Under the pieces are notes generated by a model. It was not told the DNA's origin. It did not search any database and saw only the letters and a list, made by a program, of their open reading frames with translations. A program made the translations under genes and the position numbers. From Christensenella sp. UBA6406 (lineage in GTDB: Bacteria; Bacillota; Clostridia; Christensenellales; UBA1242), in contig DJPS01000043.1 of the NCBI GenBank assembly GCA_002438625.1, forward strand, positions 1 to 28,287: 28,287 nucleotides of DNA, in the 5' to 3' direction. Within the stretch, counting starts at the first letter, position 1; the number at the start of each line of letters is the position of its first letter. Below are positions 2-28,287 of the stretch, one piece after another.

Positions 2-757
2 GCAAGTGGTGCGGTAGATAGTGCTGGCATAAATGTAAGTATTCCAGCAAGTGAAACCGCAACAGAAGATACGGCAAATTCAGTGGCAAGCATAACAATG
101 TGGGCAAGTGCATTCCCTGAGCCTGTACCTGAGCCAGAAACAGGTTCATTGGAAGGCATTTTAAAAATTGGTGTATTAGATGAAGCACAGAAAACTGCAA
201 TTATTGGTGGGGATACAAATTGCCCAAATGAATATGTAATACCATCATATGTAAAGAAGGGAACAGAAAAAGATAGTCAAGGTCGTCTTATTTGGTATTC
301 ATCAGCTGACAACTATAAAGGGCACGAAAGTGATAGTGATATCTATAAGGTAACAAAGATTACGGGAGGTCTTAGGAGGAATGGTTCAGAGTATTATGAA
401 GACGATGTCTCAGAGATAGCGTTTCCTGAAGCATTAACATCAATTGTAATTCCAAAAACTGTAACGAGTATAGACTGGGGTGCATTTGATGGATGTAGTA
501 GCCTAACAAGTGTAATAATACCAGAAGGAGTAACAAGTATAGGTCTTCACGCATTTAGAGGTTGTAGCAATCTAACGAGTATAACTATACCAGCAAGTGT
601 AACAAGTATAGGAATTCTTGCATTTTATTATTGTGGTCTAAAAATTATTAATTATGGTGGTACAAAGATTCAGTGGGAAAGTTTAATGAGTAGTACTAGT
701 AGTTGCATTCCTAGTGGAGTACAAGTTATTTGTAGTGATGGAACAATAACAATATAA
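2..757 (+). CDS. C-terminal part of a BspA-type leucine-rich-repeat surface protein (5' end lies outside the window)
   Basis: The frame is open from base 2, with no stop upstream of the GTG at 83 used by the ORF track, so the gene enters from the left edge. It has consecutive ~23-aa units of the form IP..VTSI...AF.GC..LTS (IPKTVTSIDWGAFDGCSSLTSV / IPEGVTSIGLHAFRGCSNLTSI / IPASVTSIGILAFYYC), typical of BspA-like LRRs. The TAA stop is followed by a hairpin terminator. Confidence 0.75.
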   Translation, partial: ASGAVDSAGINVSIPASETATEDTANSVASITMWASAFPEPVPEPETGSLEGILKIGVLDEAQKTAIIGGDTNCPNEYVIPSYVKKGTEKDSQGRLIWYSSADNYKGHESDSDIYKVTKITGGLRRNGSEYYEDDVSEIAFPEALTSIVIPKTVTSIDWGAFDGCSSLTSVIIPEGVTSIGLHAFRGCSNLTSITIPASVTSIGILAFYYCGLKIINYGGTKIQWESLMSSTSSCIPSGVQVICSDGTITI

Positions 758-781
758 GCTAAAAACAAAAGAAATAAGAAG

Positions 782-818
782 CATTGAAACTTTTAAAAAG
801 TGGTTTCAATGTTTTTTT
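782..818 (+). terminator. Rho-independent terminator downstream of the LRR gene
   Basis: A 9-bp perfect stem (cattgaaac 782-790 pairs with gtttcaatg 803-811), a 12-nt loop, then T7 at 812-818. Confidence 0.8.
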
Positions 819-825
819 GTTGTGG

Positions 826-1250
826 GAAATGTGGAGTGGGATTAAAAGTGCGGTTGACTGTAAAAGAAATAAAAATGTAAATCTGCTTTATTGTTTTTGT
901 TAGGCTAAAGGCTTGTTATGGGCGGAAATGGGTGTTGAGCGAAAGTGTGCGGAGCGAACGGTTTGCGGGAGCGGTTGGGGTTGGGTTTGTTTGGGCGTGT
1001 GTGTGGGTGTTGTGGGATGTGGGGAGCGGAAGGAGTTCGCACGGCTTTGCATCTGTCGCAAGGGCGAGCGGGTTTGGGTAGCGTGGGGGTATGTAAGTGT
1101 TGTGGCGGTTAAGTGATTGATTTGGGGGTTATGGAGATTAGGGGCAGAGATTGAGATTGGGCGAAAATGTCTGGGGTTAGCGGTGCGTTTGTGAATGTGA
1201 TTGCTAAGTCTATGGTGAGTGATTTTAGTGCATAGAAAATGTTGGGGCTG
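826..1250. repeat. GC-rich, G/T-skewed island 1, an inverted diverged copy of the island at 19435-20128
   Basis: Hand count over 941-1100 gives 78 G, 18 C, 43 T and 21 A (60% GC, 76% G+T) in an otherwise AT-rich window. Four colinear sequence anchors are shared with 19632-19842 on the opposite strand (see findings). ORFs here appear in several frames only because stop codons are rare in this composition. Confidence 0.7.
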
Positions 1251-1765
1251 TAAATATCATTATTAATTAATATTGCAACTTTTCCTAATCGGGTTTGATA
1301 GGTTGAAAGATTAAATTTTTTTTCAATGTCGCCTTCTTCATAAATATCAGTTAATGTGCCATTTGAGATTATTGCAACTGCACCATTTGTTGTTGATTGA
1401 ATTGTCTGTTGTACTTTTTGCTTCTTTATTAGTGGAACCATTGTTTCATCTGTTTGTGATTGACTTTCTTGTGTGTTTTGTTTTGGATTTAATGTGGGTT
1501 GCAAAATGTGAATAGCGTTATTTTCATAAAAAGTTTTAGTATTCATTTCATTTAAGTTTTTATTTGGTTCTGTGTTATTGTAGCATAATGTGAAATATGA
1601 AAAAATTAAGCAATTCAAATTTGTGGAAAGGCTGGTAAGGTAAGAGATTAAGTTGCTATCAAATATTGTTTCCGCTTGTTCTTTTGTGTCTTTTAAGTAG
1701 CAAAATATTATATCACTTTGTTTATATTCTATATCTTTCAAATTATTAACATATTGAATTAGCAT
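1109..1765 (-). CDS. Hypothetical protein; the 3' end runs into GC-rich island 1 and may be truncated
   Basis: A 218-aa ORF with AT-rich codon usage like its neighbours. The segment VAIISNGTL...YQTRLGKVAILINNDIYSPNIFYALKSLTIDLAITFTN loosely resembles the region around the catalytic Cys of carbon-nitrogen hydrolases (G-x-[IV]-G-x-x-IC-Y-D-x-x-F-P), but Cys is replaced by Asn. The last ~45 codons (about 1109-1250) lie in island sequence of a quite different composition. Confidence 0.4.
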   Translation of the reverse strand: MLIQYVNNLKDIEYKQSDIIFCYLKDTKEQAETIFDSNLISYLTSLSTNLNCLIFSYFTLCYNNTEPNKNLNEMNTKTFYENNAIHILQPTLNPKQNTQESQSQTDETMVPLIKKQKVQQTIQSTTNGAVAIISNGTLTDIYEEGDIEKKFNLSTYQTRLGKVAILINNDIYSPNIFYALKSLTIDLAITFTNAPLTPDIFAQSQSLPLISITPKSIT

Positions 1766-2155
1766 TTAACCTACCTTTAATATTTTTAATTTTGTGTAAA
1801 TTTTGTAGCAATAGTTAGAATTTATGCAATGACACTTTTTGCTAATTTTTGTTGGTTCAGTTGAAAATTTTATTTTGCCGATTTATTTAAATATTATATG
1901 AATCATTTTATTTTGTTGTTAAATGGTTTTGTTGATAAAGAAAAATTGCAATAAAAAATAATAAATAAAAATACTGCTTTATTGAATTAAAATTTAAATT
2001 TGCTTACTTAAATGCAAAAAGATAATTAAATATATTGAAAAGTTTTCATTTTTTGTGTATAATAGGATTAATAAAGCTAAACTAAAATATATAAAGTGCA
2101 TTTTTTCATTTTATTATTTTGAATGATTTATCATTAAAGGGAGTTGCGTGCGTAA

Positions 2156-3091
2156 GTGAAGATTGGAAGCATAGAGTTTAAAACGGGAATATTTTTAGCA
2201 CCTATGGCATCTGTAACCGATGTAGGGTTCAGAAGTGTTTGCACGGATTTTGGTGCGGAACTAACATATAGTGAAATGGTGAGTGCGAAAGGGCTTTATT
2301 ATAGCAGTGAGAAAACGCAAGAACTTTTAGCCTTTGAAGATAATTGCAAAGCAAAGGCAGTTCAAATATTTGGCAACGACCCTGCAATTATGGCGGAAAT
2401 AGTTAAGGGGTTTGGGACAAAATATGATATAATTGATATCAATATGGGTTGCCCTGCACCTAAGGTTTTTAAAAATGGCGATGGTTGTGCATTAATGGGC
2501 AACATTGAACTTGCAAGAGAAATTATTTCCGCTTGTGTTAAAGTTTCGCAAGTGCCTATTACGGTTAAGTTTCGTAGTGGAATAGATGAAAATCATATAA
2601 ATGCCATTGAATTTGCTAAAATGTGCGAAAGTGCAGGGGCAAGTGCGATAACTTTGCATCCACGCACACGGGAGCAGTTTTATAGTGGTAAGGCTGATTA
2701 TGAATTGTTAAGGCGGGTTGTGCAAAGCGTGAACATTCCAGTTATAGGCAGTGGGGATGTGGTTGATATGCAGTCTTATATGCGGATGAAAGAAACGGGC
2801 GTAAGTGCGGTTATGATTGGTCGTGGTGCACTTGGAAACCCTGAGATTTTTAGCATTTTAAGCGGACAAAATGTGCCATATTCTAAATTTGATGCAGTAA
2901 AAAAACATATAGAGATTTTAAGAAAGTATTATAGTGATGATTATTTAACAAAATATTTACGCAAGCACTTTTTATGGTATGTAAGTGGCATTGATAATGT
3001 TAAGCAAATAAAGGCAAAACTTGCACTTTGCGATGATTTAAATGTGGCGTTGCAATTAATTAAAGATGCATTTAATCAAAGCGGATTGTAA
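2156..3091 (+). CDS. dus: tRNA-dihydrouridine synthase (Dus family, DusB-like)
   Basis: It has LAPMASVTD near the N-terminus, the catalytic-Cys motif DINMGCPAPKV, ITVKFRSG, ITLHPRTR and GSGDV...MIGRGALGNP, which together form the Dus TIM-barrel signature. A GTG start follows AAAGGGAG. Confidence 0.9.
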   Translation: MKIGSIEFKTGIFLAPMASVTDVGFRSVCTDFGAELTYSEMVSAKGLYYSSEKTQELLAFEDNCKAKAVQIFGNDPAIMAEIVKGFGTKYDIIDINMGCPAPKVFKNGDGCALMGNIELAREIISACVKVSQVPITVKFRSGIDENHINAIEFAKMCESAGASAITLHPRTREQFYSGKADYELLRRVVQSVNIPVIGSGDVVDMQSYMRMKETGVSAVMIGRGALGNPEIFSILSGQNVPYSKFDAVKKHIEILRKYYSDDYLTKYLRKHFLWYVSGIDNVKQIKAKLALCDDLNVALQLIKDAFNQSGL

Positions 3092-3200
3092 TTAATGTGG
3101 AGATAATTTAATCAATATAAAATTTATTTAAATATATAAATCAATTTTTAAAAGGCTAAAATTTTATTTTAAGGAAAGCAAAAGGAGGAATGAAACAATT

Positions 3201-4655
3201 ATGTCTTGGATAGCACTTGGAATAGTTTTATTTGTCAACTTAGTTTGTATTGGAACAATGATTTTCCTAGAAAGAAAAAATCCAAACTCTGTTTTAAGTT
3301 GGTCGCTTGTTATGACTTTTCTTCCTATGATTGGTTTCTTTATGTATTGCCTTTTGGGCAACAGTCTATCTATCAAAACGACTAAAATGATAAGGGAAAA
3401 GAGCATAAGAAGTAGAGAGTTTAAAGAACTTGTTGTAAATCAAAAACTTGGACTTGATGCAGGTGAATTGCCACTAAATGAAGTTGAGTTTACGCATAAG
3501 CAGTTAATAAGGCAAAATTTGCTAATGTCGCAATGTGCTTTAAGTCAAAACAATATAATTGATGTATTTTCAAAAGGTAAAGTTTTTATAGATAAATTGC
3601 TTGAAGATATCCAAAGTGCAAAAAAATCAATAAATATTTCATATTATATTTTTGCAACTGATAAAGTGGGAATGAAAGTGCTTGAAGCCTTGATAAGCAA
3701 AGCAAATGAAGGTGTTGAAGTTAATTTGCTTATAGATGCGGTTGGAAGCTTGAAGAGCAATAGAAAACACTTTAAAAGGCTTGTTAAAGCGGGTGGGAGA
3801 GTTGCAGAGTTTTTCCCACCACTTATGGGGTTTAGGCTTTTCAATTTAAAACTTAATTATAGAAACCATAGAAAGATTGTTGTTATAGATAACCAAATTG
3901 GCTACACGGGTGGCATAAACATAAGGGATGACCATATGGGAGGTGTGCAAAGGTTATCACCTTGGACTGATATGCAAATAAGAATAAGGGGAGATGCCGT
4001 TTTAGATTTGCAAAAGTTGTTTTTGGGCGATTTCCGCTATGCTTATAAGGGTAAAGATTTAGATGATGCAAATTTAATAAGATTTTTTGAAAAACCTGAA
4101 ATAGTTGGTGAAAGTGGCGTGCAAGTTGTTTATAGTGGCCCAGATGAAGAAGAGCAACAAATAAAGAAAAGTATGATTAAAATGATTATGTCCGCAAAGA
4201 AGTCAGTTGTGCTTGAAACGCCATATTTTGTGCCAGATGAATCTTTTACGGAAGCAATTAAAATTGCAAGTGCTTCAGGGGTTGATGTGAAGATAATCAC
4301 ACCGCAACTGCCCGATAAAAGAGTTGTTTATTATACATCGCTATCTTATTTGCGAGATATGGTTAATTGCGATGTTAAGGTTTATCAAAGGGAAGGTTTT
4401 TTACACTCTAAATGCTTGCTTGTGGATGATGAAATTTGCTTGATAGGCACTTGTAATGCGGACATACGGTCTTTTAAACTTAATTTTGAAGATGCGTGCA
4501 TAGTTTACGATAAAAAGTTTGCAGAGAATATTGCAAGAATTTGTGCTTATGATTTATCTTATAGTCAGCAAATTGATATGGTCTGGTTTAAAAAGTTGCC
4601 AATTAGGGTTAAAATGGGAAAATCATTTTTTAGATTATTCAGTGCAATTTTATAA
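3201..4655 (+). CDS. cls: Cardiolipin synthase (phospholipase D superfamily)
   Basis: Two N-terminal TM helices and two HKD motifs (NHRKIVVIDNQIGYTGGINI and LHSKCLLVDDEICLIGTCNAD). The 484-aa length is typical of Firmicute Cls. AGGAGG lies upstream. Confidence 0.9.
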   Translation: MSWIALGIVLFVNLVCIGTMIFLERKNPNSVLSWSLVMTFLPMIGFFMYCLLGNSLSIKTTKMIREKSIRSREFKELVVNQKLGLDAGELPLNEVEFTHKQLIRQNLLMSQCALSQNNIIDVFSKGKVFIDKLLEDIQSAKKSINISYYIFATDKVGMKVLEALISKANEGVEVNLLIDAVGSLKSNRKHFKRLVKAGGRVAEFFPPLMGFRLFNLKLNYRNHRKIVVIDNQIGYTGGINIRDDHMGGVQRLSPWTDMQIRIRGDAVLDLQKLFLGDFRYAYKGKDLDDANLIRFFEKPEIVGESGVQVVYSGPDEEEQQIKKSMIKMIMSAKKSVVLETPYFVPDESFTEAIKIASASGVDVKIITPQLPDKRVVYYTSLSYLRDMVNCDVKVYQREGFLHSKCLLVDDEICLIGTCNADIRSFKLNFEDACIVYDKKFAENIARICAYDLSYSQQIDMVWFKKLPIRVKMGKSFFRLFSAIL

Positions 4656-8462: not shown

Positions 8463-8976
8463 TATATTGTCAAAATCTCCTTTATTATTTTATTATATAT
8501 CTTTTTATCTAAATAAGCAATAATTTTTTGCATTTTTAATTTTTTTATAAAATAAGATTGAATTGAAATCCTTATTTTGTGCATTTTTTTACTTAGAAAA
8601 AGAGTAAAATCAATTAAAAAGGGATAAAAATTAAAAATTTTTAAAAAATCTTTGCATTTTATTTTACAAATTGACCAAAATATAATATAATGTAATATGA
8701 ATAGACAATTATAGACATTATTTGCCGAATTTAGCACTTTTGGCAAGTGTTTGCAAAAATAATTGTTTAGATATTTATTTAGTTACAAATCAAACAACAA
8801 TGGTAACAATGTAATAGCAAAAAAAAACTTGGACTAAAAACATTTTAATCTTTATTACTATTGATATTATTCAATTTAATGATTAATTTAGCACAATGTT
8901 TTTGGCGGAAAGTGAATAAGGACAACCATTTCTTTAACTAGCATAAGTATGCAAATATGAAAGGGGAGGATTAGCT

Positions 8977-10476
8977 ATGGGTGAAGAAAAGGATTTATCT
9001 ACGACCAAAAAGCGTGGTAGACCAAAATCAGGCGAGCAGTCAAGTTCTTCCAGTGGAAGACCTAAGGCAAGTAGCACTACAAATGCGGGTGGTGTAACGC
9101 AAAAGAAGAAACGCCCAACAGGAAACAGCAGTAAAAAGGCACAAGTGGTGGCTGCTGCAACAGAGTCTGCAAACAAAGCAAATAAAGCAAAAAGTACATC
9201 AAAATCAACAATCAATTTTGATGAGAATGTTTCGCCTAAGGTAGATGCACAAGTTGAAAATAATGTACAATTTGATGCAAATGTGGACGCATCAACAACT
9301 GCTGGAGAAGTGGCTAGCGGTGGTATAGATGCAAGCATAAATGTTTCTAGCGATTTGGGCGAAAGCGATGTTTCTAATGAAAGTTTAGATATGAACGGCA
9401 TTGAAAGTGATGATTTGAATGGTGATGTTAATGCGGAAATTAATGCAGATGTGGGTGCAGACATTTCTGCTAGTGCAGATTTAGATTTAAATGTCGCAAA
9501 TGAAAAAGATGCTATAAATGACAATGCTTTAAGTGGTGAAGAAGAAAGCGGGCTAGATTTGCAAGAAGGTCAAAATGAAAATAATTTATCCGATAACGAA
9601 CCACAAAATGAACCACAAATTGAAGAAAGTGGTGAAGAAAATCACAATGAGCAAGAGGAAGAGAAGGCTGGTGAGGAAGTAAAGGCGGACAAGCAGGAAG
9701 AAGTTAGTGAGTTGGATTTAACTCTTGATGATAGTGAATTGGAGCAGTTAAAAGCAAAGAAAAAGAAGAAGAAAAGAAAAGGTGGCGGTGCGGATTTAGG
9801 CGGTGGCATAAACCCTGATTCTAGCGATGAAGCGGGTCTTCAAGGAAAACAACAAAAGAAGAAAAAATGGTGGCTTTTATTGCTATTATTGCTTTTGCTT
9901 TTAATTGGCGGGTTGGTGTTCTTATTTAGGGATGTGCTTTTCCCTCCGAAACCTATTGTTATTGTTCCGCAAGGAATGATTATAGATATCAAGGAAACTG
10001 GAATAAACCAATTTGGTATGAAGGAATTTATTTTCAAACCTGGTGATACGATTGAATTTAACAATGCACTTTCTGTTGGTTCAGAGAGAACGGTTGAAAA
10101 GGAAGACGGAACAAAAGAAGAATTAAGTCCATTCTCTTTAAGGCTTCGTTTCTATATAGAATATCAAGGTGAGCAATATCAAGCATTTATTGAAGATATT
10201 CATAATTCAAAAGATGCAACGATAAAGAAGTATTATGATTGGTATTATTGGTATGATATAGCAATTCCTGGAGCGCCATATAAAAAGATTATTGAAAGCA
10301 TTAAACTTTCAGCTACGGGCATAGGCAATGAGTGGCAAGGTAGGGAAGTTAAGTTAGTGCTTGAATATCAAACAGTTGTGCCAGTTTTGGAAACTATTCA
10401 AGAAGATTTTGAGTATGAATACGACCCAGAGTGGGCTGAACTAATTGCTGATATATATAAAGATTATACAACGTAA
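8977..10476 (+). CDS. Single-pass membrane protein with N-terminal AT-hook(s), an acidic low-complexity region and a C-terminal extracytoplasmic domain
   Basis: A strong RBS (AAAGGGGAGGA). One canonical AT-hook KKRGRPKSG and one GRP-core copy (SGRPKAS). A ~250-aa D/E/N/S-rich region, a poly-Lys block (KAKKKKKKRKGGG and KKKKWW), then a WWLLLLLLLLLLIGGLVFLF TM helix and a ~175-aa aromatic-rich globular tail. Confidence 0.75.
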   Translation: MGEEKDLSTTKKRGRPKSGEQSSSSSGRPKASSTTNAGGVTQKKKRPTGNSSKKAQVVAAATESANKANKAKSTSKSTINFDENVSPKVDAQVENNVQFDANVDASTTAGEVASGGIDASINVSSDLGESDVSNESLDMNGIESDDLNGDVNAEINADVGADISASADLDLNVANEKDAINDNALSGEEESGLDLQEGQNENNLSDNEPQNEPQIEESGEENHNEQEEEKAGEEVKADKQEEVSELDLTLDDSELEQLKAKKKKKKRKGGGADLGGGINPDSSDEAGLQGKQQKKKKWWLLLLLLLLLLIGGLVFLFRDVLFPPKPIVIVPQGMIIDIKETGINQFGMKEFIFKPGDTIEFNNALSVGSERTVEKEDGTKEELSPFSLRLRFYIEYQGEQYQAFIEDIHNSKDATIKKYYDWYYWYDIAIPGAPYKKIIESIKLSATGIGNEWQGREVKLVLEYQTVVPVLETIQEDFEYEYDPEWAELIADIYKDYTT

Positions 10477-15528: not shown

Positions 15529-15620
15529 GGAGAGTTACCCAAGAGGCCGAAGGGGCGTCCCTGCTAAGGATGTAGTGGTGTTAAAAGCCAGCGAGAGTTC
15601 AAATCTCTCACTCTCCGCCA
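15529..15620 (+). tRNA. tRNA-Ser (anticodon GCU), type II with long variable arm and encoded CCA
   Basis: Hand-folded: acceptor GGAGAGT/ACTCTCC, anticodon stem CGTCC/GGATG with loop CTGCTAA (anticodon GCT), a long variable arm, T arm GAGAG-TTCAAAT-CTCTC, discriminator G, then CCA. Confidence 0.95.
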
Positions 15621-19434: not shown

Positions 19435-20128
19435 AAGCGGAATCGCTTACGCTAAAAATGGATCAAGTTGCCGTTGAAATTGCTTAAAAGCAATTTGGCT
19501 TGCAAATAGCAAGCAAGCCCTTTGCTCAAAAGCAAAGCAACGGCAATTAAGTGGGGTGCGGAAACACCGCAACCGCAAGCCCGCCCCGCAAATAAATTTG
19601 CGTGCCCGCCTGTGCTTGTCCGTGCCAGCGTTTCCGCCCCCACAAAACTCGCTCCGCTCACGACCGCTCTCGCACAGGGTAGGCAAGCCCCGCTCACGCT
19701 CGCTTGCCCCTTCGCTTTCGCTAACCGTTCGCTCCGCTCGCTCTTTAGCCCGCATCCAACTTCACCCAAAAGCCAAAGCAACCCTTTAAACGCACCCACA
19801 GTCGTTCCCAAAGTAGAACCGCAGTGCTCCACTCTCCGCATTGCTTAAATAAATATAGAATAGAAGCGAAATCGCAAAAAGCAAGTTTTTGCTTAAAATA
19901 AATAGATATTTAAAGCAGAACCGCTCCGCTAAGAATGATTGAAAGGGTTGCTCGCCCCAAGTGCGGATAAAGGCGAATCCTAGCCCTCATACACGCCCGT
20001 CTGCGTTTCACACACTCAACAACTCACACACGCCACTAAAACCCAATCGCCTTTGCCATTACACTTGACTGCTCGCTCAACCCGTTTTTGCCTAGCGTTC
20101 ATTTCCTACAATAAAACCATTAAGCAGA
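19435..20128. repeat. GC-rich, C-skewed island 2 (hairpin cluster, C-rich block 2a, AT-rich linker, C-rich block 2b)
   Basis: Hand count over 19561-19800 gives 102 C and 44 G in 240 nt (61% GC). Over 19921-20100 it gives 63 C and 32 G in 180 nt. The island shares colinear anchors with the reverse complement of 826-1031. Four mutually overlapping ORFs on both strands are composition artefacts. Confidence 0.7.
19466..19548 (+). other. Predicted compact four-way junction (cloverleaf-shaped) element; RNA or ssDNA structure of unknown function
   Basis: The closing stem ttgccgttg (19468-19476) pairs with caacggcaa (19538-19546). It encloses three abutting hairpins: 19477-19496 (8 bp), 19497/8-19514/19 (6-7 bp) and 19520-19537 (6-7 bp). 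Each is built on TTGC-(A-rich loop)-GCAA. Confidence 0.45.
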
Positions 20129-20369
20129 AAGCTCTAAACAAAGCAAAATTAGGTTAAAAAACTTAATAAAAAATATAAATTAATTAAGTCAAATTCACAA
20201 AAACTTATCCACTTTTTATGAGAGGATGTGGATAAGATGAAAAGACAAAAATTGCAAAAGTTGTACAAAAATGGAGGATGAAACACTAAAAAAGGGTAGA
20301 AAATTAAAAATTTTGCAACTTTTTCAAAAAAGAGCCGAAAATGCTTGACAAAAGGCGGGGGACAAGATT

Positions 20370-21011
20370 TTGGAAGTTGGTGCAGGAACAGGAAGATATT
20401 CTTTGCACTACGCTGAAAAAGGTTTTAATGTTACTGCTATTGAATTTATTGAGCATAATTTGGATGTGCTTAAATCGCACGTAAAAGATGGAATGAAGAT
20501 AAAGGCAGAGCAAGGGGATGCGGTTGACTTGTCTAGGTTTGATGATAATGTTTTTGATGTTACGCTAGTGCTAGGTCCGCTTTATCATTTATATAGTGAG
20601 GATGAGCAAAGAAAAGCAATAAGTGAAGCAATTAGGGTTACGAAAAGTGGTGGAGTGATTATGATTGCGTATATACCAAATGATAGTGTAATGATTAATT
20701 GGGGTCTTGGCGAAAATATTATAAAAGGTAAGGGCATTGAGTTTGATGAAAATTTTAGGTTCTTTAATAATGAAAATAATATTTTTGCAACTTTTTGCAT
20801 AAGTGAATTTATGCATATGATGAATGGTTTTAAAGTAAAATATTTGCACAATGTTGCAACTGATGGATTTTCTGCGTGCCTTAAAGATAAAGTTAATGAA
20901 CTAACAGATGAGCAGTTTAAAGAATGGGTTAGATATCATTTATCAGTTTGCGAAAGAGAAGATATGTGTGGGGTTAGTGCTCATATGTTGTACATATGTA
21001 AAAAAGAATAA
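20370..21011 (+). CDS. Class I SAM-dependent methyltransferase, probably 5'-disrupted (candidate pseudogene spanning about 20237-21011)
   Basis: SAM motif I (ILEVGAGTGRYS) sits at the very N-terminus of the ORF-track call, which uses a TTG start. The same frame continues upstream as MEDETLKKGRKLKILQLFQKRAENA-[TGA 20346-20348]-QKAGDKILEVG. An RBS-preceded ATG at 20237 is in another frame. The downstream motifs (VLGPLYHL, GGVIMIAYI) are intact. Confidence 0.6.
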   Translation: MEVGAGTGRYSLHYAEKGFNVTAIEFIEHNLDVLKSHVKDGMKIKAEQGDAVDLSRFDDNVFDVTLVLGPLYHLYSEDEQRKAISEAIRVTKSGGVIMIAYIPNDSVMINWGLGENIIKGKGIEFDENFRFFNNENNIFATFCISEFMHMMNGFKVKYLHNVATDGFSACLKDKVNELTDEQFKEWVRYHLSVCEREDMCGVSAHMLYICKKE

Positions 21012-23996: not shown

Positions 23997-24020
23997 ATAA
24001 ATAAAAGTTATAAAATTAAA

Positions 24021-24058
24021 AAATATGGATATATCATAAAGGTTATCCATATTTTTTT
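24021..24058 (+). terminator. Rho-independent terminator of the SPFH operon
   Basis: A 9-bp stem (atatggata 24023-24031 pairs with tatccatat 24044-24052), then T7. Confidence 0.8.
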
Positions 24059-26910: not shown

Positions 26911-28287
26911 TTATTTACCTAAGCAAAATTTGCTGAATATTGAGTCAATCACTTCTTCGGTTATAACTTTACCTGTAATGTTGGCAAGATTATTCCACGC
27001 TTCTTTAATGTCTAATGTAATGCAATCTAAACTTGTTTTGCTAATGCTGTTAATGGCTTGACCTAAATTGTCGCTTGCCATTTTTAATGCCTCTAAGTGT
27101 CTTTGATTTGTTATAAGTAGGGCGGAAGCATTAAAATCTTTACCTAGTGTTAAATTGTATAGCAAATTTTTTAATTTATCTATATTTTCGCTATTTTTAG
27201 CGGATATTTCTATTGTATTTAAAATATTGCAACTTTTTGGTAAATCGGTTGTATTGAATTGATTTTCTTTTGCATCAATTTTATTTATTACTAAAATTGT
27301 TGGGGTTGTGTAGTCTTCAACAAGTTCAAATATCTTTTTATCTTCGGCATTTATTTTGCGACTGGCATCAACAATAAGCAATATAATGCTACTTGATTTT
27401 ATTTGGTTTATTGCCCTTTCAATTCCTATTGATTCTACAATATCAGTGGAGTTGCGGATGCCTGCTGTGTCGCATATGTTAAATTTTACGCCTTTAAATG
27501 TAAAACTATCTTCTATGCTATCTCTTGTTGTGCCTGCAATGTCAGTTACAATCGCTCTATCATAGTTAAGTAAAGCATTCAATAAACTGCTTTTTCCCAC
27601 ATTCGGCTTTCCAATAATTGCTATATTTATGCCACTTTTTAACATTCTTCCACTTTTATTTGTTTCAATTAAAGCATTTATGCTTGAAAGAACACTTTCA
27701 AGTTTTATTTTTATTTGCTTTTCCGTTGTGTATTCAATGTCTTCTTCTGGATAATCAAGTGCGACTTCAATTTCTGCTAAAATGTCGGTTAGTGTGCTTT
27801 GATTTTTTTCCAATTCTTGCCTTAGTTTTCCGTTTGCTAGGTTAAAGTTGGCGGAAAGTTCGGCTTCGCTATCTGCATTAATTATATCAATTATGCCTTC
27901 TAAGCTATCAAGTGATTGCTTGCCATTTAAAAATGCACGCTTAGAAAATTCTCCACGATTTGCAAGTCTACAACCAAACTCTAAGCATCTTTTAAGTGCA
28001 AGGTCGGTTAAGGCTATGCCACCATGCAAATGAAGTTCAACAACATCTTCTCCCGTAAAAGAGTGGGGTGCTTTAAAATAAACTGCAAGACATTTGTCTA
28101 TGCCGTTTTCTAATTCTACATCACTTAAATACATATGCCTTGCTTCAATTTGTGTGCGTGTTTTGAAGGCTGTTATAAATTTCTTTGCTATGTTTAATGA
28201 TTCTTTGCCACTTATCCTAATTATAGATATACCAGCAATAGAGTTATTGCTGGTAGCTATGGCACAAATTGTGTCGGTATCTTTCAT
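26911..28287 (-). CDS. mnmE: tRNA modification GTPase MnmE (TrmE)
   Basis: MKDTDTICAIAT...GISIIRISG at the N-terminus, G1 motif GKPNVGKSSLLN, DTAGIR, NKID, and the C-terminal FCLGK tetrapeptide. The start codon coincides with the last base of the window. Confidence 0.95.
   Translation of the reverse strand: MKDTDTICAIATSNNSIAGISIIRISGKESLNIAKKFITAFKTRTQIEARHMYLSDVELENGIDKCLAVYFKAPHSFTGEDVVELHLHGGIALTDLALKRCLEFGCRLANRGEFSKRAFLNGKQSLDSLEGIIDIINADSEAELSANFNLANGKLRQELEKNQSTLTDILAEIEVALDYPEEDIEYTTEKQIKIKLESVLSSINALIETNKSGRMLKSGINIAIIGKPNVGKSSLLNALLNYDRAIVTDIAGTTRDSIEDSFTFKGVKFNICDTAGIRNSTDIVESIGIERAINQIKSSSIILLIVDASRKINAEDKKIFELVEDYTTPTILVINKIDAKENQFNTTDLPKSCNILNTIEISAKNSENIDKLKNLLYNLTLGKDFNASALLITNQRHLEALKMASDNLGQAINSISKTSLDCITLDIKEAWNNLANITGKVITEEVIDSIFSKFCLGK

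Follow-up and report, generated by a model that had tools for sequence, protein, structure and literature searches.

The window, by which we mean the whole 28,287-nt stretch of DNA analysed here, carries two islands of a modular, non-coding repeat family that is G-rich on one strand, and the copies of this family are many, mosaic in structure, built around invariant blocks and different from strain to strain. The family probably constitutes an undescribed, lineage-restricted set of bacterial interspersed repeats of an uncultured low-GC Firmicute, and it is probably transcribed. The explanation towards which we lean is that island 1 (W1; ~781-1108) represents a truncated b unit together with a stub of the preceding unit, and that island 2 (W2; 19437-20362), which runs the other way, represents units c and a in that order, preceded by the AT-rich module D with its promoter-like sequence. 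Island 1 and its flanking gene are composed as follows.

781..819, plus strand: module H, a hairpin GCATTGAAAC-N11-GTTTCAATG followed by T7
826..901, plus strand: degenerate remnant of a module T (...GTGCGGTTGACTG...CTGCTTTATTGTTTTTGTT), the 3' end of the preceding unit, with hairpin and T-run; the part 848-901 was placed by coordinates
902..1075, plus strand: unit b, the core of the finding, G-rich and non-coding
920-930, plus strand: GGGCGGAAATG, inside unit b
949-963, plus strand: family motif GCGGAGCGAACGGTT, inside unit b
1034-1070, plus strand: invariant 37-mer AGTTCGCACGGCTTTGCATCTGTCGCAAGGGCGAGCG, inside unit b
1076..1108, plus strand: short G-rich spacer that ends at the stop codon of the convergent gene
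1109..1765, minus strand: gene for a 218-aa conserved hypothetical protein, outside the repeat, with its stop codon TAA at 1111..1109

Island 1 is real and odd in composition. The GC content of the whole window is 32.4%, and a recount of positions 941-1100 (A21 C18 G78 T43, 60% GC) returned the values originally given for them. The stretches from about 871 to 1220 (G-rich on the plus strand) and from 19561 to 20120 (C-rich on the plus strand) are the only strongly skewed, GC-rich non-coding stretches of the window; the statement that there are only two such islands holds within the window, but the family carries on just beyond its right end, where a second copy of the 3' domain of unit a (92.6% identity) is found. 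The original prediction had treated 826-1250 as non-coding, with an ORF (1765 to 1109) running into the island. However, positions 1109-1250 encode, on the minus strand, the C-terminal ~50 codons of the 218-aa protein, whose homologues (43-94% identity) align over the whole length down to the last residues, indicating that this stretch is a genuine coding C-terminus and that the non-coding island extends over ~781-1108. The protein itself had no match in Pfam, NCBIfam or PADLOC. Module H, which was called terminator-like in a terminator scan, terminates the upstream BspA-type LRR gene and at the same time marks where the repeated sequence begins on the left; its stem is also found, with other loops, ahead of islands in the loci L008 (c3), L019 and L018/L029. 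Intact T modules (..TGCGGTGGTTTGGTTTATAAATAAATCATTCCGCTTTTTTGTTTGTTGA..) in L008, L020, L025, L027 and L028 could be aligned with the module T remnant. Unit b has a 31-nt internal deletion and a 3' truncation; positions 954-1074 matched the b units of six other loci at 81-92% identity, and past 1074 BLAST found nothing shared with other islands.

The two islands of the window had been described as inverted copies of one another, on the basis of four colinear anchors (A to D) and one additional short match (E). All five are literally present in the sequence, and an independent repeat search returned the arms 944-973 and 19713-19742 (30 nt at 83%). When 826-1108 was locally aligned with the reverse complement of 19435-20128, the sole match was a 25-nt block around anchor B, with a score of 35 compared to 23.3 +/- 3.0 in dinucleotide shuffles (reached by 2 of 300 shuffles). 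Only this block was significant; the other anchors (A, C, D and E) are no better than composition alone would give, so the four colinear anchors overstate the direct likeness. A third island (L008 1-760) aligned with island 1 at 77% identity across 333 nt, and its continuation aligned with window positions 19653-19822 in reverse at 77% identity across 177 nt. These alignments indicate that the kinship between W1 and W2 is real but indirect, via the L008 island; the two share one repeat family, but neither is a simple inverted copy of the other. The modules of island 2 and its flanking gene are listed below.

19437..19650, minus strand: structured 3' domain of unit a, consisting of a tail, a four-way junction and an irregular hairpin
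19460-19437, minus strand: unit a tail, CATTTTTAGCGTAAGCGATTCCGC
19546-19468, minus strand: unit a four-way junction, with closing stem TTGCCGTTG/CAACGGCAA and three hairpins
19641-19620 / 19568-19553 (P1) and 19602-19587 (P3), minus strand: irregular hairpin of unit a, ~90 nt
19651..19844, minus strand: body of unit a, GAGCG(R)-rich, opening with GCAATGCGGAGAGTGGAGCACTGCGGTTCTAC (19844-19813)
19873..19894, minus strand: AAGCAA-AAAC-TTGCTT hairpin resembling a terminator, with TTTGCGATTT after it; on the G-rich strand it separates unit c from unit a
19906..20120, minus strand: unit c, with conserved 5' end GAGCGAGCAGTCAAG and conserved 3' end GGTTCGCCTTTATCCGCACTTGGGGCGAGC...TAGCGGAGCGGTTCTGCTTT
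19930-19912, minus strand: terminal hairpin of unit c, with G.U and T-run, at the end of the conserved 3' part
20121..20362, no strand assigned: module D, AT-rich
20204-20236: inverted pair CTTATCCAC-N15-GTGGATAAG inside module D, also a hairpin followed by a T-run
20200-20172, minus strand: promoter-like TTGTGA-17-TATATT in module D, reading into unit c
20345-20360: TTGACAAAAGGCGGGG, at the end of the right arm of module D, a stub of a b unit
20370..21011, plus strand: SAM-methyltransferase ORF, flanking and outside the repeat

The body of unit a holds a hairpin (GGCAAGC..GCTTGCC) and the shared motif GCGGAGCGAACGGTT (19737-19723), and is called a 129-aa ORF (P0001) by public pipelines. The AAGCAA-AAAC-TTGCTT module was also found behind c or a' units in L018, L028 and L030. 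In unit c, an interior of ~75 nt varies from copy to copy, and the terminal hairpin (AGCGGAGCGGTTCTGCT plus T-run) was terminator-like on the G-rich strand in the terminator scan. L008 c2, L025 and L027 likewise have a module D ahead of their G-rich strand. In another assembly, contigs break at ~19457 and ~20334, bracketing the repeat. The methyltransferase ORF begins exactly at motif I, is aligned by Pfam Methyltransf_11 from residue 2 and has residues 1-2 corresponding to residues 36-86 of solved homologues; it is 5'-truncated where it joins module D.

A count of copies across public assemblies of this organism and its close relatives, including MAGs, yielded at least 12 non-redundant islands of 0.3-1.1 kb: two each in the window, L008 and L025, and one each in L017, L018/L029, L019, L020/L030, L027 and L028. 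The assemblies were made by different assemblers from more than eight samples. The neighbours of the islands are unrelated (rpsL, rplS, rho, uvrD, murG, mnmE, spmB, pilin genes and an RNase HII region), and in 34 contiguous kb (the window plus its L008 extension) ~8.6% of the sequence consists of islands. Each island is a mosaic of the modules a, a', b, c, T, H and D in differing orders. As with BOX elements, there are many dispersed intergenic copies in one lineage, built from a few modules that vary in number and order. Contigs repeatedly stop inside islands, and this, together with the copy number and the mosaic structure, supports the non-autonomous repeat that had been one of the options raised by the original prediction. 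The coincidence with contig breaks might also suggest that the islands are assembly chimeras, or else remnants of a decayed high-GC protein or RNA gene, a reading to which we attach practically no weight: the same island sequences were recovered in MEGAHIT, SPAdes, Logan and NCBI MAG assemblies from different samples, no match was found in Rfam, Pfam, plasmids or phages, and a reading frame is ruled out by 1-nt indels. Indeed, unit a is non-coding because its copies differ by 1-nt indels in G and homopolymer runs. A protein-coding reading was rejected for the family, given these indels, the frame shifts between copies and the fact that the called ORFs belong to no family.

On the G-rich strand the word GAGCG(R) recurs at intervals of about 60 nt. 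GAGCG was counted 117 times in 6.5 kb of island cores, against 21 expected, and 14 of the 15 GAGCGR sites of the window lie inside the two islands, on the G-rich strand every time. Comparison of strains showed that the islands differ at single loci. Between L018 and L029, which represent one locus, there are deletions at GAGCG repeats, with the junction present or absent; L020 and L030 differ by an inversion with a breakpoint within junction hairpin H1; and L030 differs from L031 at 29 positions, all inside 120 nt of the c interior. The L030 version of this interior is nearly equal to that of L027, indicating a segment swap. In addition, genes are damaged at island edges (the truncated methyltransferase and a DUF6273 fragment), and inverted island pairs are found on either side of a surface-protein gene in L008. 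A search for terminal inverted repeats, by minus-strand self-comparison of the 12 islands, found none and returned only internal hairpins and the L020 inversion variant; no transposase was present among the genes in ~150 kb of flanks, and no conserved partner protein was found among the neighbours with NCBIfam and PADLOC. We infer that the family may have been reshuffled by recombination at short GAGCG(R) repeats and hairpins, without a transposase.

Within the units, the invariant 37-mer has one variable position over eight b units, beside flanks that are ~50-80% alike, and ~85 nt of the unit a hairpin are invariant in nine copies. In the four-way junction (19468-19546), which has a 9-bp closing stem, 6-7-bp arms and hardly any linkers, 7 of 58 stem columns vary compared to 13 of 24 loop columns (Fisher p = 1.3e-4). 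Folding of the 3' domain of unit a gave z = -5.4 for RNA of the G-rich strand and -6.9 for DNA of the C-rich strand, and among the units this part of unit a (window positions 19437-19650) alone folded better than shuffled sequence; for unit a as a whole, z was -4.5 on the C-rich strand versus -1.8 on the G-rich strand. Units b, c and a' folded no better than dinucleotide shuffles on either strand (z ~-2 to +1.3 on the G-rich strand), their C-rich strand being nearly unstructured (MFE -9 to -25 kcal/mol per 125-196 nt, z up to +2.1), and unit b of island 1 likewise showed no excess folding energy on either strand. RNAalifold analysis of nine a units found a double change in only 3 of 81 pairs, and no compensatory covariation was seen because the copies are too alike to inform. 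A long-range helix proposed in unit c (CAAGTGC/GCACTTG) was rejected, its 5' half being variable and uncompensated.

The earlier view that no known RNA family is represented was upheld by Rfam covariance-model scans and ARAGORN. Rfam 15 returned nothing for the whole window at the gathering threshold, chance-level matches only for both islands at E <= 10, and no match inside any island unit for five further loci at E <= 1. ARAGORN made no tRNA or tmRNA call at the junction, its sole find being tRNA-Ser(GCU) at 15529-15620. An exact unit-end pattern gave one chance match, in Streptomyces, among GTDB representative genomes, and a 21-mer of the unit a hairpin gave four chance matches, on GC-rich contigs, in JGI metagenomes; two exact patterns gave no match in IMG/VR, and blastn gave none in PLSDB and INPHARED. 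Among 1.84 billion proteins, only 23 representatives resemble the spurious island ORF.

Such a very narrow distribution, with nothing in other collections, would be in line with tolerated selfish or neutral repeat DNA, namely a non-autonomous element or a recombination-amplified satellite that has no host role and no regular transcription, and whose conserved blocks reflect recent spread, gene conversion or its own propagation signals. The mosaic build and its variation by strain, the genes damaged at island edges, the lack of covariation and the ordinary folding of the b, c and a' units would all be accommodated by this reading, which we regard as unlikely but deserving of serious attention. 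However, neutral sequence of 55-60% GC, with a G:C ratio of ~3:1, should decay in a 32% GC genome, and conservation is very uneven, with an invariant 37-mer set beside divergent flanks and with junction loops that vary while the stems do not. Moreover, neither terminal inverted repeats nor a transposase was found, and the hairpin-plus-T-run modules are consistently oriented in one direction.

This shared orientation is relevant to the question of which strand is transcribed. We consider it likely, from the arrangement of sequence features, that RNA from the units corresponds to the G-rich strand, the possibility that the original prediction had put forward as its alternative; hairpins, gene context and a depletion of GGAGG agree with this. 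Hairpin-plus-T-run sites number 17 on the G-rich strand versus 7 on the C-rich strand, a count that takes in the terminators of neighbouring genes, and the T module, the second terminator and the unit-end hairpin point in the same direction. Two G.U pairs are required in each of the unit-end and 37-mer hairpins, and in L008 c2 the junction hairpin H1 survives only via two G.U pairs on the G-rich strand; a single junction variant, that of L030, speaks for the C-rich strand instead. At seven loci the G-rich strand runs in the direction of the upstream gene; at four the upstream gene is divergent, and a module D is present at three of these (W2, L008 c2 and L025) and missing at L020. GGAGG occurs once against 21.9 +/- 4.2 expected, which may partly be a consequence of the GAGCG excess. 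The coding strands of this genome are generally G>C, and orientation with respect to genes is inseparable in these data from orientation with respect to replication. A convincing sigma-70 promoter is missing ahead of most islands, and module D has a weak -10 element that differs by copy (TATATT, TACATT or TGCATT). In the model that we judge likely, transcription would start at the weak module D promoter where the upstream gene is divergent, and would elsewhere arise by read-through from a co-directional upstream gene. Every unit would close in its own hairpin and U-run, so that non-coding RNAs of 0.2-0.7 kb, poor in C and rich in G/U, would come from the islands, which would also act in cis as stacked one-way terminators.

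The original prediction had instead favoured the C-rich strand as the RNA, in the form of an unstructured 3'-UTR or rut platform at which Rho loading ends transcription of the gene running into the island. The organism carries a rho gene, the C-rich strand of the b, c and a' units is almost without structure, and spmB has no obvious intrinsic terminator. Nevertheless, W1, W2 and L018, 3 of the 10 members with a known neighbour, are the only ones whose C-rich strand is entered by a convergent or upstream gene, and at the other seven no gene enters this strand and the neighbours are co-directional with the G-rich strand. The ORF supposed to run into the island is a real coding C-terminus, and a length of 0.3-1.1 kb, the invariant blocks, the junction domain and the G-strand terminators far exceed what a rut site needs, so that we hold this reading to be very improbable.

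That RNA from the G-rich strand serves as a sponge for CsrA, or for a protein like it, via GGA is, in our estimation, scarcely credible. The G-rich strand is probably the transcribed one and contains 2.5 GGA per 100 nt, but neither GGA (167 vs 154 +/- 9 in shuffles) nor A-N-GGA (23 vs 26 +/- 5) is enriched over shuffle level, just 53 of the 167 GGA are unpaired in the MFE fold, and the enriched word is GAGCG(R), not GGA. No csrA was found in the sequence examined.

Alternatively, the G-rich strand could work as duplex or single-stranded DNA, in the manner of a Chi-like AddAB cluster, a G-quadruplex or R-loop hot spot of recombination or inversion, or a DnaA-box cluster together with module D, all of which we consider improbable. 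The Chi sequence of Bacillus subtilis is AGCGG, and in the islands AGCGG (82 vs 22 expected) and GAGCGG (59 vs 8) are in excess on one strand only; furthermore, the islands' G-rich strand is the locally G-rich strand at ~7 of 10 loci. Outside the islands, however, AGCGG is distributed 86 to 46, a skew that is within composition expectation and in the lower half of 20 permutations, although polarity was examined over 87 kb only and the power of this comparison is low. For other skewed k-mers, GGGTG and GCGAG among them, the bias looks driven by codons. With regard to quadruplexes and recombination, the only positions of the window with G4Hunter >= 1.5 fall in 960-1125, the 3' domain of unit a folds best as C-rich single-stranded DNA, and the inversion and deletion breakpoints, like the inverted pairs around the L008 surface-protein gene, involve islands; but canonical G4 motifs, present in W1, L008 c3, L020, L025b and L028, are missing from W2, L008 c2, L017, L018, L019, L025a and L027. 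The inverted pair of module D contains the sole perfect DnaA-box 9-mer of the window and one box with a single mismatch, which together form a hairpin, and the pair reads equally well as a plain hairpin with T-run. The region is not oriC, because the cumulative GC skew keeps its sign across the window. Finally, the one-way terminators would be left unexplained by a DNA-level element.

Returning to the transcription model, it is conceivable, though we doubt it, that a host factor binds these RNAs, or else the invariant 37-nt hairpin and the junction domain of unit a, and that they are useful to the cell rather than tolerated by it. A bolder proposal, which we think unlikely, is that the islands encode long non-coding RNAs of a new class, abundant, poor in C and rich in G/U, and that they have their own promoter module and terminators and occupy several per cent of the chromosome; the 37-nt bulged hairpin and the four-way-junction domain would serve as host-factor handles, and the exchangeable interiors with their many GAGCG(R) words would either sequester a partner, whether protein or C-rich sRNAs, or, by forming R-loops, program local recombination or inversion beside surface-protein and housekeeping genes. 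If transcribed and functional, the islands, at 6-9% of the sampled sequence, would be an unusually large investment in one family of non-coding RNA for a small AT-rich genome. Even as mere repeats, they break metagenome assemblies of this lineage, are misannotated as hypothetical proteins in public pipelines and indicate where deletions, inversions and truncated genes occur. For pull-down and structure work, the invariant 37-mer and the junction domain offer concrete handles, and the strain-level rearrangements offer a natural test of whether G-rich tracts drive bacterial recombination. To our knowledge, the strand composition of the islands (G:C ~3:1) has no described counterpart in bacterial repeat or RNA families.

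When compared to known systems, the islands share with rut regions and Rho-dependent terminators a C-rich, G-poor and unstructured strand of >80 nt in an organism with rho. In contrast to rut regions, most copies have no flanking gene whose sense strand is the C-rich one, and the size, the invariant blocks and the structured domain are foreign to rut regions. Sponge RNAs include CsrB/RsmZ and RosA, a G-rich sponge of B. subtilis; the islands may resemble them in having a G-rich non-coding transcript with a short repeated word, but this word is GAGCG(R) and not GGA, which is unenriched in the islands. G-rich R-loop or G4 tracts are known from the ColE1 RNA II origin region, immunoglobulin switch regions and the pilE G4 of Neisseria. 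Like these, the islands would have a non-template strand of >40% G with G clusters, and they are tied to rearrangements, at some loci near surface-protein genes; in contrast to such tracts, their G4 motifs vary between copies, and priming, switching or a dedicated recombinase has no support. In the GC-IGR approach, large structured non-coding RNAs are sought as GC-rich intergenic regions of AT-rich genomes (PMC6429828, PMC11109978). The islands are comparable to RNAs such as OLE, ROOL, GOLLD, raiA and HEARO in being long GC-rich intergenic regions of an AT-rich Firmicute and in the strongly structured junction and hairpin sub-domain of unit a (z -5.4). They differ from these RNAs in that they have no Rfam match, are mostly (b, c and a') without excess folding, and occur as many mosaic copies per genome rather than as one or few conserved genes. 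Among interspersed repeats, bcr repeats belong to the Bacillus cereus group and REP/BIME/ERIC repeats are enterobacterial. The BOX, RUP and SPRITE repeats are those of Streptococcus pneumoniae (PMC3049150). The islands resemble BOX, RUP, SPRITE, bcr and REP-like repeats in forming many intergenic copies without coding capacity in one Firmicute lineage, and have in common with BOX (boxA-boxB-boxC) a modular mosaic build; BOX-like repeats are likewise hairpin-forming, strain-variable and often co-transcribed with their neighbours. Unlike BOX-like repeats, the islands showed neither terminal inverted repeats nor target duplications, and they carry one-way terminator modules and a promoter-like module. 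They reach 0.3-1.1 kb compared to under 0.2-0.3 kb, and have 55-60% GC in a 32% GC genome with a G:C ratio of ~3:1; both composition and size are greatly different from those of BOX, RUP, SPRITE and bcr.

The two islands of the window belong to a lineage-restricted, multi-copy, mosaic family of non-coding repeats with an unusual composition and unevenly conserved blocks. The window is a segment of bacterial chromosome (GC content 32.4%) carrying dusB, cls, a metallophosphatase gene, an ArsR-type regulator gene, mnmG, metG, degV, tRNA-Ser, ksgA, tatD, spmA/spmB, a methyltransferase gene, a Band-7 protein gene, dapA, dpaB/dpaA and mnmE, and its host is a low-GC, spore-forming Firmicute represented by metagenome-derived sequences only. 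Coding strands show a marked excess of G over C across the whole window, and this very strong asymmetry tracks gene orientation here and at other loci of the organism (outside the islands, strand counts were 72 versus 1 for GGGTG and 69 versus 4 for GCGAG). The hand count that the original prediction had made for 941-1100 (A21 C18 G78 T43) was exact, and the two skewed GC-rich stretches are real, with no other non-coding ones in the window. Since the same sequence came from different assemblers and samples, being identical in the NCBI MAG GCA_002405695.1 (DHMH01000095.1) and in several ENA and Logan assemblies, an artefact is excluded.

The non-coding island had been drawn as 826-1250, and the right third of this interval turned out to be coding: the 218-aa ORF 1765..1109 has homologues at 43-94% identity whose alignments reach its final residues, so 1109-1250 is the C-terminus of a real protein, with no family assigned, and the island stops at 1108. 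Island 2 had been described as an inverted copy of island 1 linked by four colinear anchors. Every anchor string is present as written, but the claim overstated the direct similarity, since aligning 826-1108 locally to reverse-complemented 19435-20128 recovered a single block, GCGGAGCGAACGGTT plus 10 nt (score 35, compared to 23.3 +/- 3.0 for dinucleotide shuffles, 2 of 300 of which reached it). A repeat search of the window gave the same block as an inverted match of 30 nt (944-973 / 19713-19742, 83%), and global alignment of the two islands was uninformative. The tie between the two islands is instead an indirect chain through an island of L008, a locus that reaches 5.8 kb beyond mnmE and carries two further islands. 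One of these approximates a copy of window 19437-20330 (about 90% identical in conserved parts), while the other follows a DUF6273 surface-protein gene, opens with the same hairpin as window 781-819, shows 77% identity to island 1 over 333 nt and continues with sequence 77% identical to window 19653-19822 in reverse.

The spmB contigs of other samples end 57 nt past the gene, corresponding to window position 19457, and BLAST placed a second copy of 19437-19583 (92.6% identical) directly past the window's right edge. Exact-pattern scans across GTDB representatives, JGI metagenomes and IMG/VR returned only chance matches or none. More islands were reached by protein searches with two spurious ORFs (window 19452-19841 and P0008) and look-ups of their matches, which added L017, L018, L019, L020, L025 (two), L027, L028 and L029-L031. 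Since an exhaustive HMMER search found only 23 relatives of one island ORF among 1.84 billion representative proteins, and plasmid and phage collections held nothing similar to the islands, the family appears to be confined to a small clade. The islands are non-coding: the copies are distinguished by indels of one base within G runs, and the island ORFs vary in frame and length between copies and matched no family. Public pipelines annotate hypothetical proteins of 78-270 aa on the island G-rich strand (window 19452-19841, minus; P0001 and P0005-P0013), all of these ORFs being almost certainly spurious.

Seven recurring modules were recognised, and the coordinates of all island modules were verified.

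Modules (sequences on the G-rich strand) and their places in the window
Module H: hairpin GCATTGAAAC..GTTTCAATG followed by a T-run; stem conserved, loop variable
Module T: ..TGCGGTGGTTTGGTTTATAAATAAATCATTCCGC with T6-9, and GTTTGTTGATTT
Module b: ..GAGCGAAAG..GCGGAGCGAGCGG..GGCGGAAAGGTGGGCGAACGGTTTGCGGG..GGGGTTGGGTTTGTTTGGG.., then the 37-mer AGTTCGCACGGCTTTGCATCTGTCGCAAGGGCGAGCG
Modules c and a': conserved ends, with an interior of ~75 nt differing among copies; both finish ..GGGGCGAGCGAC..TAGCGGAGCGGTTCTGCTTT
Module a: GAGCG-rich body, irregular hairpin of ~90 nt, four-way junction, tail
Module D: AT-rich; contains the inverted pair CTTATCCAC..GTGGATAAG and TTGTGA-17-TATATT, which resembles a promoter
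781-819, island 1: H
826-901, island 1: decayed T
902-1075, island 1: b unit, truncated at the 3' end and with 31 nt deleted
After the b unit, island 1: spacer of 33 nt
20362-20121, minus strand, island 2: D
20120-19906, minus strand, island 2: c
19894-19873, minus strand, island 2: second terminator-like hairpin
19844-19437, minus strand, island 2: a

The inverted pair of D, with a spacing of N13-15, was seen at window 20204-20236, L025 9843-9877 and L027 44-78; it holds the sole perfect DnaA-box 9-mer of the window, and a 9-bp hairpin with a T-run after it is another possible reading. A direct repeat of ~85 nt (..tattgaagtcgggagagcgggaaaatttattttcacatttgaccgacgaatatatttcaaattgtg..) with hairpin potential and no Rfam match lies beside the island in L020 (746-830, 893-975) and L030 (~960-1040, 1125-1200). 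An AT-rich motif, AAAAAGGG.A.AAAATTAAAAATTTT(GCAAC), stands upstream of several genes (window 8608-8645, 20281-20324, 24000-24027, 27217-27238) and may be a promoter or regulator site. In the 499-aa protein encoded by window 8977-10476, the long N-terminal half is acidic, lysine-rich and of low complexity; the protein also has a hydrophobic segment (WWLLLLLLLLLLIGGLVFL), and its C-terminal domain found no match in Pfam.

The island cores (6.5 kb) contain 117 GAGCG compared to 21 expected, and 14 of the 15 GAGCGR sites of the window lie inside islands, on the G-rich strand every time. A role at the DNA level, as a Chi-like cluster or a G4 or R-loop hot spot, is quite unlikely. The test that was run gives it no support: AGCGG lacks polarity outside the islands (over 87 kb only), and G4 motifs are not conserved among copies.

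The 3' domain of unit a (19437-19650, 214 nt) shows strong structure on both strands (z = -5.4 for G-strand RNA, -6.9 for C-strand DNA). Across six different junction copies, variable columns number 7 of 58 in stems versus 13 of 24 in loops (Fisher p = 1.3e-4), and nine copies agree throughout about 85 nt of the long hairpin; because the copies are too alike, essentially no compensatory changes were available to test. In the b, c and a' units, with all of island 1 included, folding did not exceed that of shuffled sequence, and island 1 thus has no claim to be a structured RNA in the usual sense. A helix proposed in unit c was rejected, since it is not maintained among copies. Island 1 stands out most for its 37-mer, in which eight copies with flanks 50-80% alike vary at one position, and which can fold into a hairpin of 12 bp with two G.U pairs and an ACGG bulge.

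The G-rich strand is probably the transcribed one; six lines of evidence point to it, none of them decisive. The hairpin-plus-T-run modules (T, the second terminator and the unit-end hairpin) share one orientation, our own scan found such sites 17 times on the G-rich strand versus 7 on the C-rich strand, and a terminator scan rated AGCGGAGCGGTTCTGCT plus T-run as terminator-like. Among the conserved hairpins, G.U pairs are required by the unit-end hairpin, the 37-mer and hairpin H1 of the L008 copy, and become A.C mismatches on the opposite strand; one L030 variant favours the C-rich strand instead. In 7 loci the upstream gene runs in the direction of the G-rich strand, and in 4 it is divergent; of these four, three (island 2, island c2 of L008 and L025) have a D module with its promoter-like element before the G-rich strand and one (L020) has no recognisable D. 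L027 has a D module too, and is not among these loci with a known upstream gene. GGAGG, the strongest Shine-Dalgarno core, occurs once in the islands compared to 21.9 +/- 4.2 expected, partly because of the GAGCG excess. Sense strands of this genome as a rule hold more G than C, and the C-rich strand continues the sense strand of a neighbouring gene in only 3 of 10 loci. A point against transcription from the G-rich strand is that, besides the weak, variable promoter of D, no good sigma-70 promoter was found. The original prediction had favoured the C-rich strand as a 3'-UTR element with rut-like Rho loading, a reading that was not supported and is improbable. Its alternative of a CsrA sponge, drawn from GGA triplets, was not supported either and is very improbable.

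Comparison of related loci revealed rearrangements within islands. L018 and L029, one locus in two strains, are distinguished by a deletion between GAGCG repeats, and the whole junction is present in one and absent from the other; L020 and L030, again one locus, differ by an inversion with its breakpoint within the loop of junction hairpin H1. All 29 differences between L030 and L031 over 1.2 kb fall in the ~120-nt interior of one c unit (L030 145-266); the interior in L030 nearly matches the version of L027, which indicates a swapped segment, and the difference looks like cassette-style replacement through gene conversion. Between L025 and L026, none of 54 SNPs lies in 1.2 kb of islands where about 3 were expected, which is weak evidence. 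Damaged genes coincide with island edges. The methyltransferase ORF 20370-21011 opens exactly at SAM motif I (EVGAGTG), lacks ~35-85 N-terminal residues found in solved homologues and adjoins at its 5' end TTGACAAAAGGCGGGG (20345-20360), which is the stub of a b unit; island rearrangement probably cut the gene short. At L008, a 74-aa ORF (1195-1419) beside the island duplicates the C-terminus of the adjacent 549-aa DUF6273 protein (1705-3354). Two islands in inverted orientation enclose the whole DUF6273 gene and could permit inversion of the segment between them. DUF6273 and pilin-like genes adjoin islands at other loci, and window 83-757 codes for the C-terminal region of a BspA-type surface protein with leucine-rich repeats and contains a tandem repeat of 69 nt (482-619). 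Neither a transposase nor a recombinase nor any other recurrent protein neighbour turned up beside the islands.

On balance, we lean slightly towards a combined reading in which the G-rich strand would be transcribed, each unit bounded by its own terminators, and recombination at short repeats and hairpins would reshuffle the family; the islands would act at least as one-way transcription stops and yield C-poor non-coding RNAs. That island RNAs or the invariant hairpins serve the host is a tentative suggestion, and the alternative, tolerated selfish DNA, is fairly unlikely. It is also unlikely that the islands are abundant G-rich lncRNA genes of a new class or tracts for programmed recombination. 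The element is real, odd and previously undescribed, with a narrow distribution and a function that is only hypothesised.

The bcr repeats are among the modular interspersed repeats of Firmicutes that come closest. Nearest in kind are BOX, RUP and SPRITE (PMC3049150), with which the islands share dispersed intergenic copies and a modular build, the two general features tested. What sets the islands apart is their size, GC content and strand skew, as well as the terminator and promoter modules that they carry themselves. The islands would be caught by screens of GC-rich intergenic regions for large ncRNAs (PMC6429828, PMC11109978), but they match no Rfam family and lack excess structure over most of their length. 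The islands are therefore filed outside the named families and, by kind, among the interspersed repeats.
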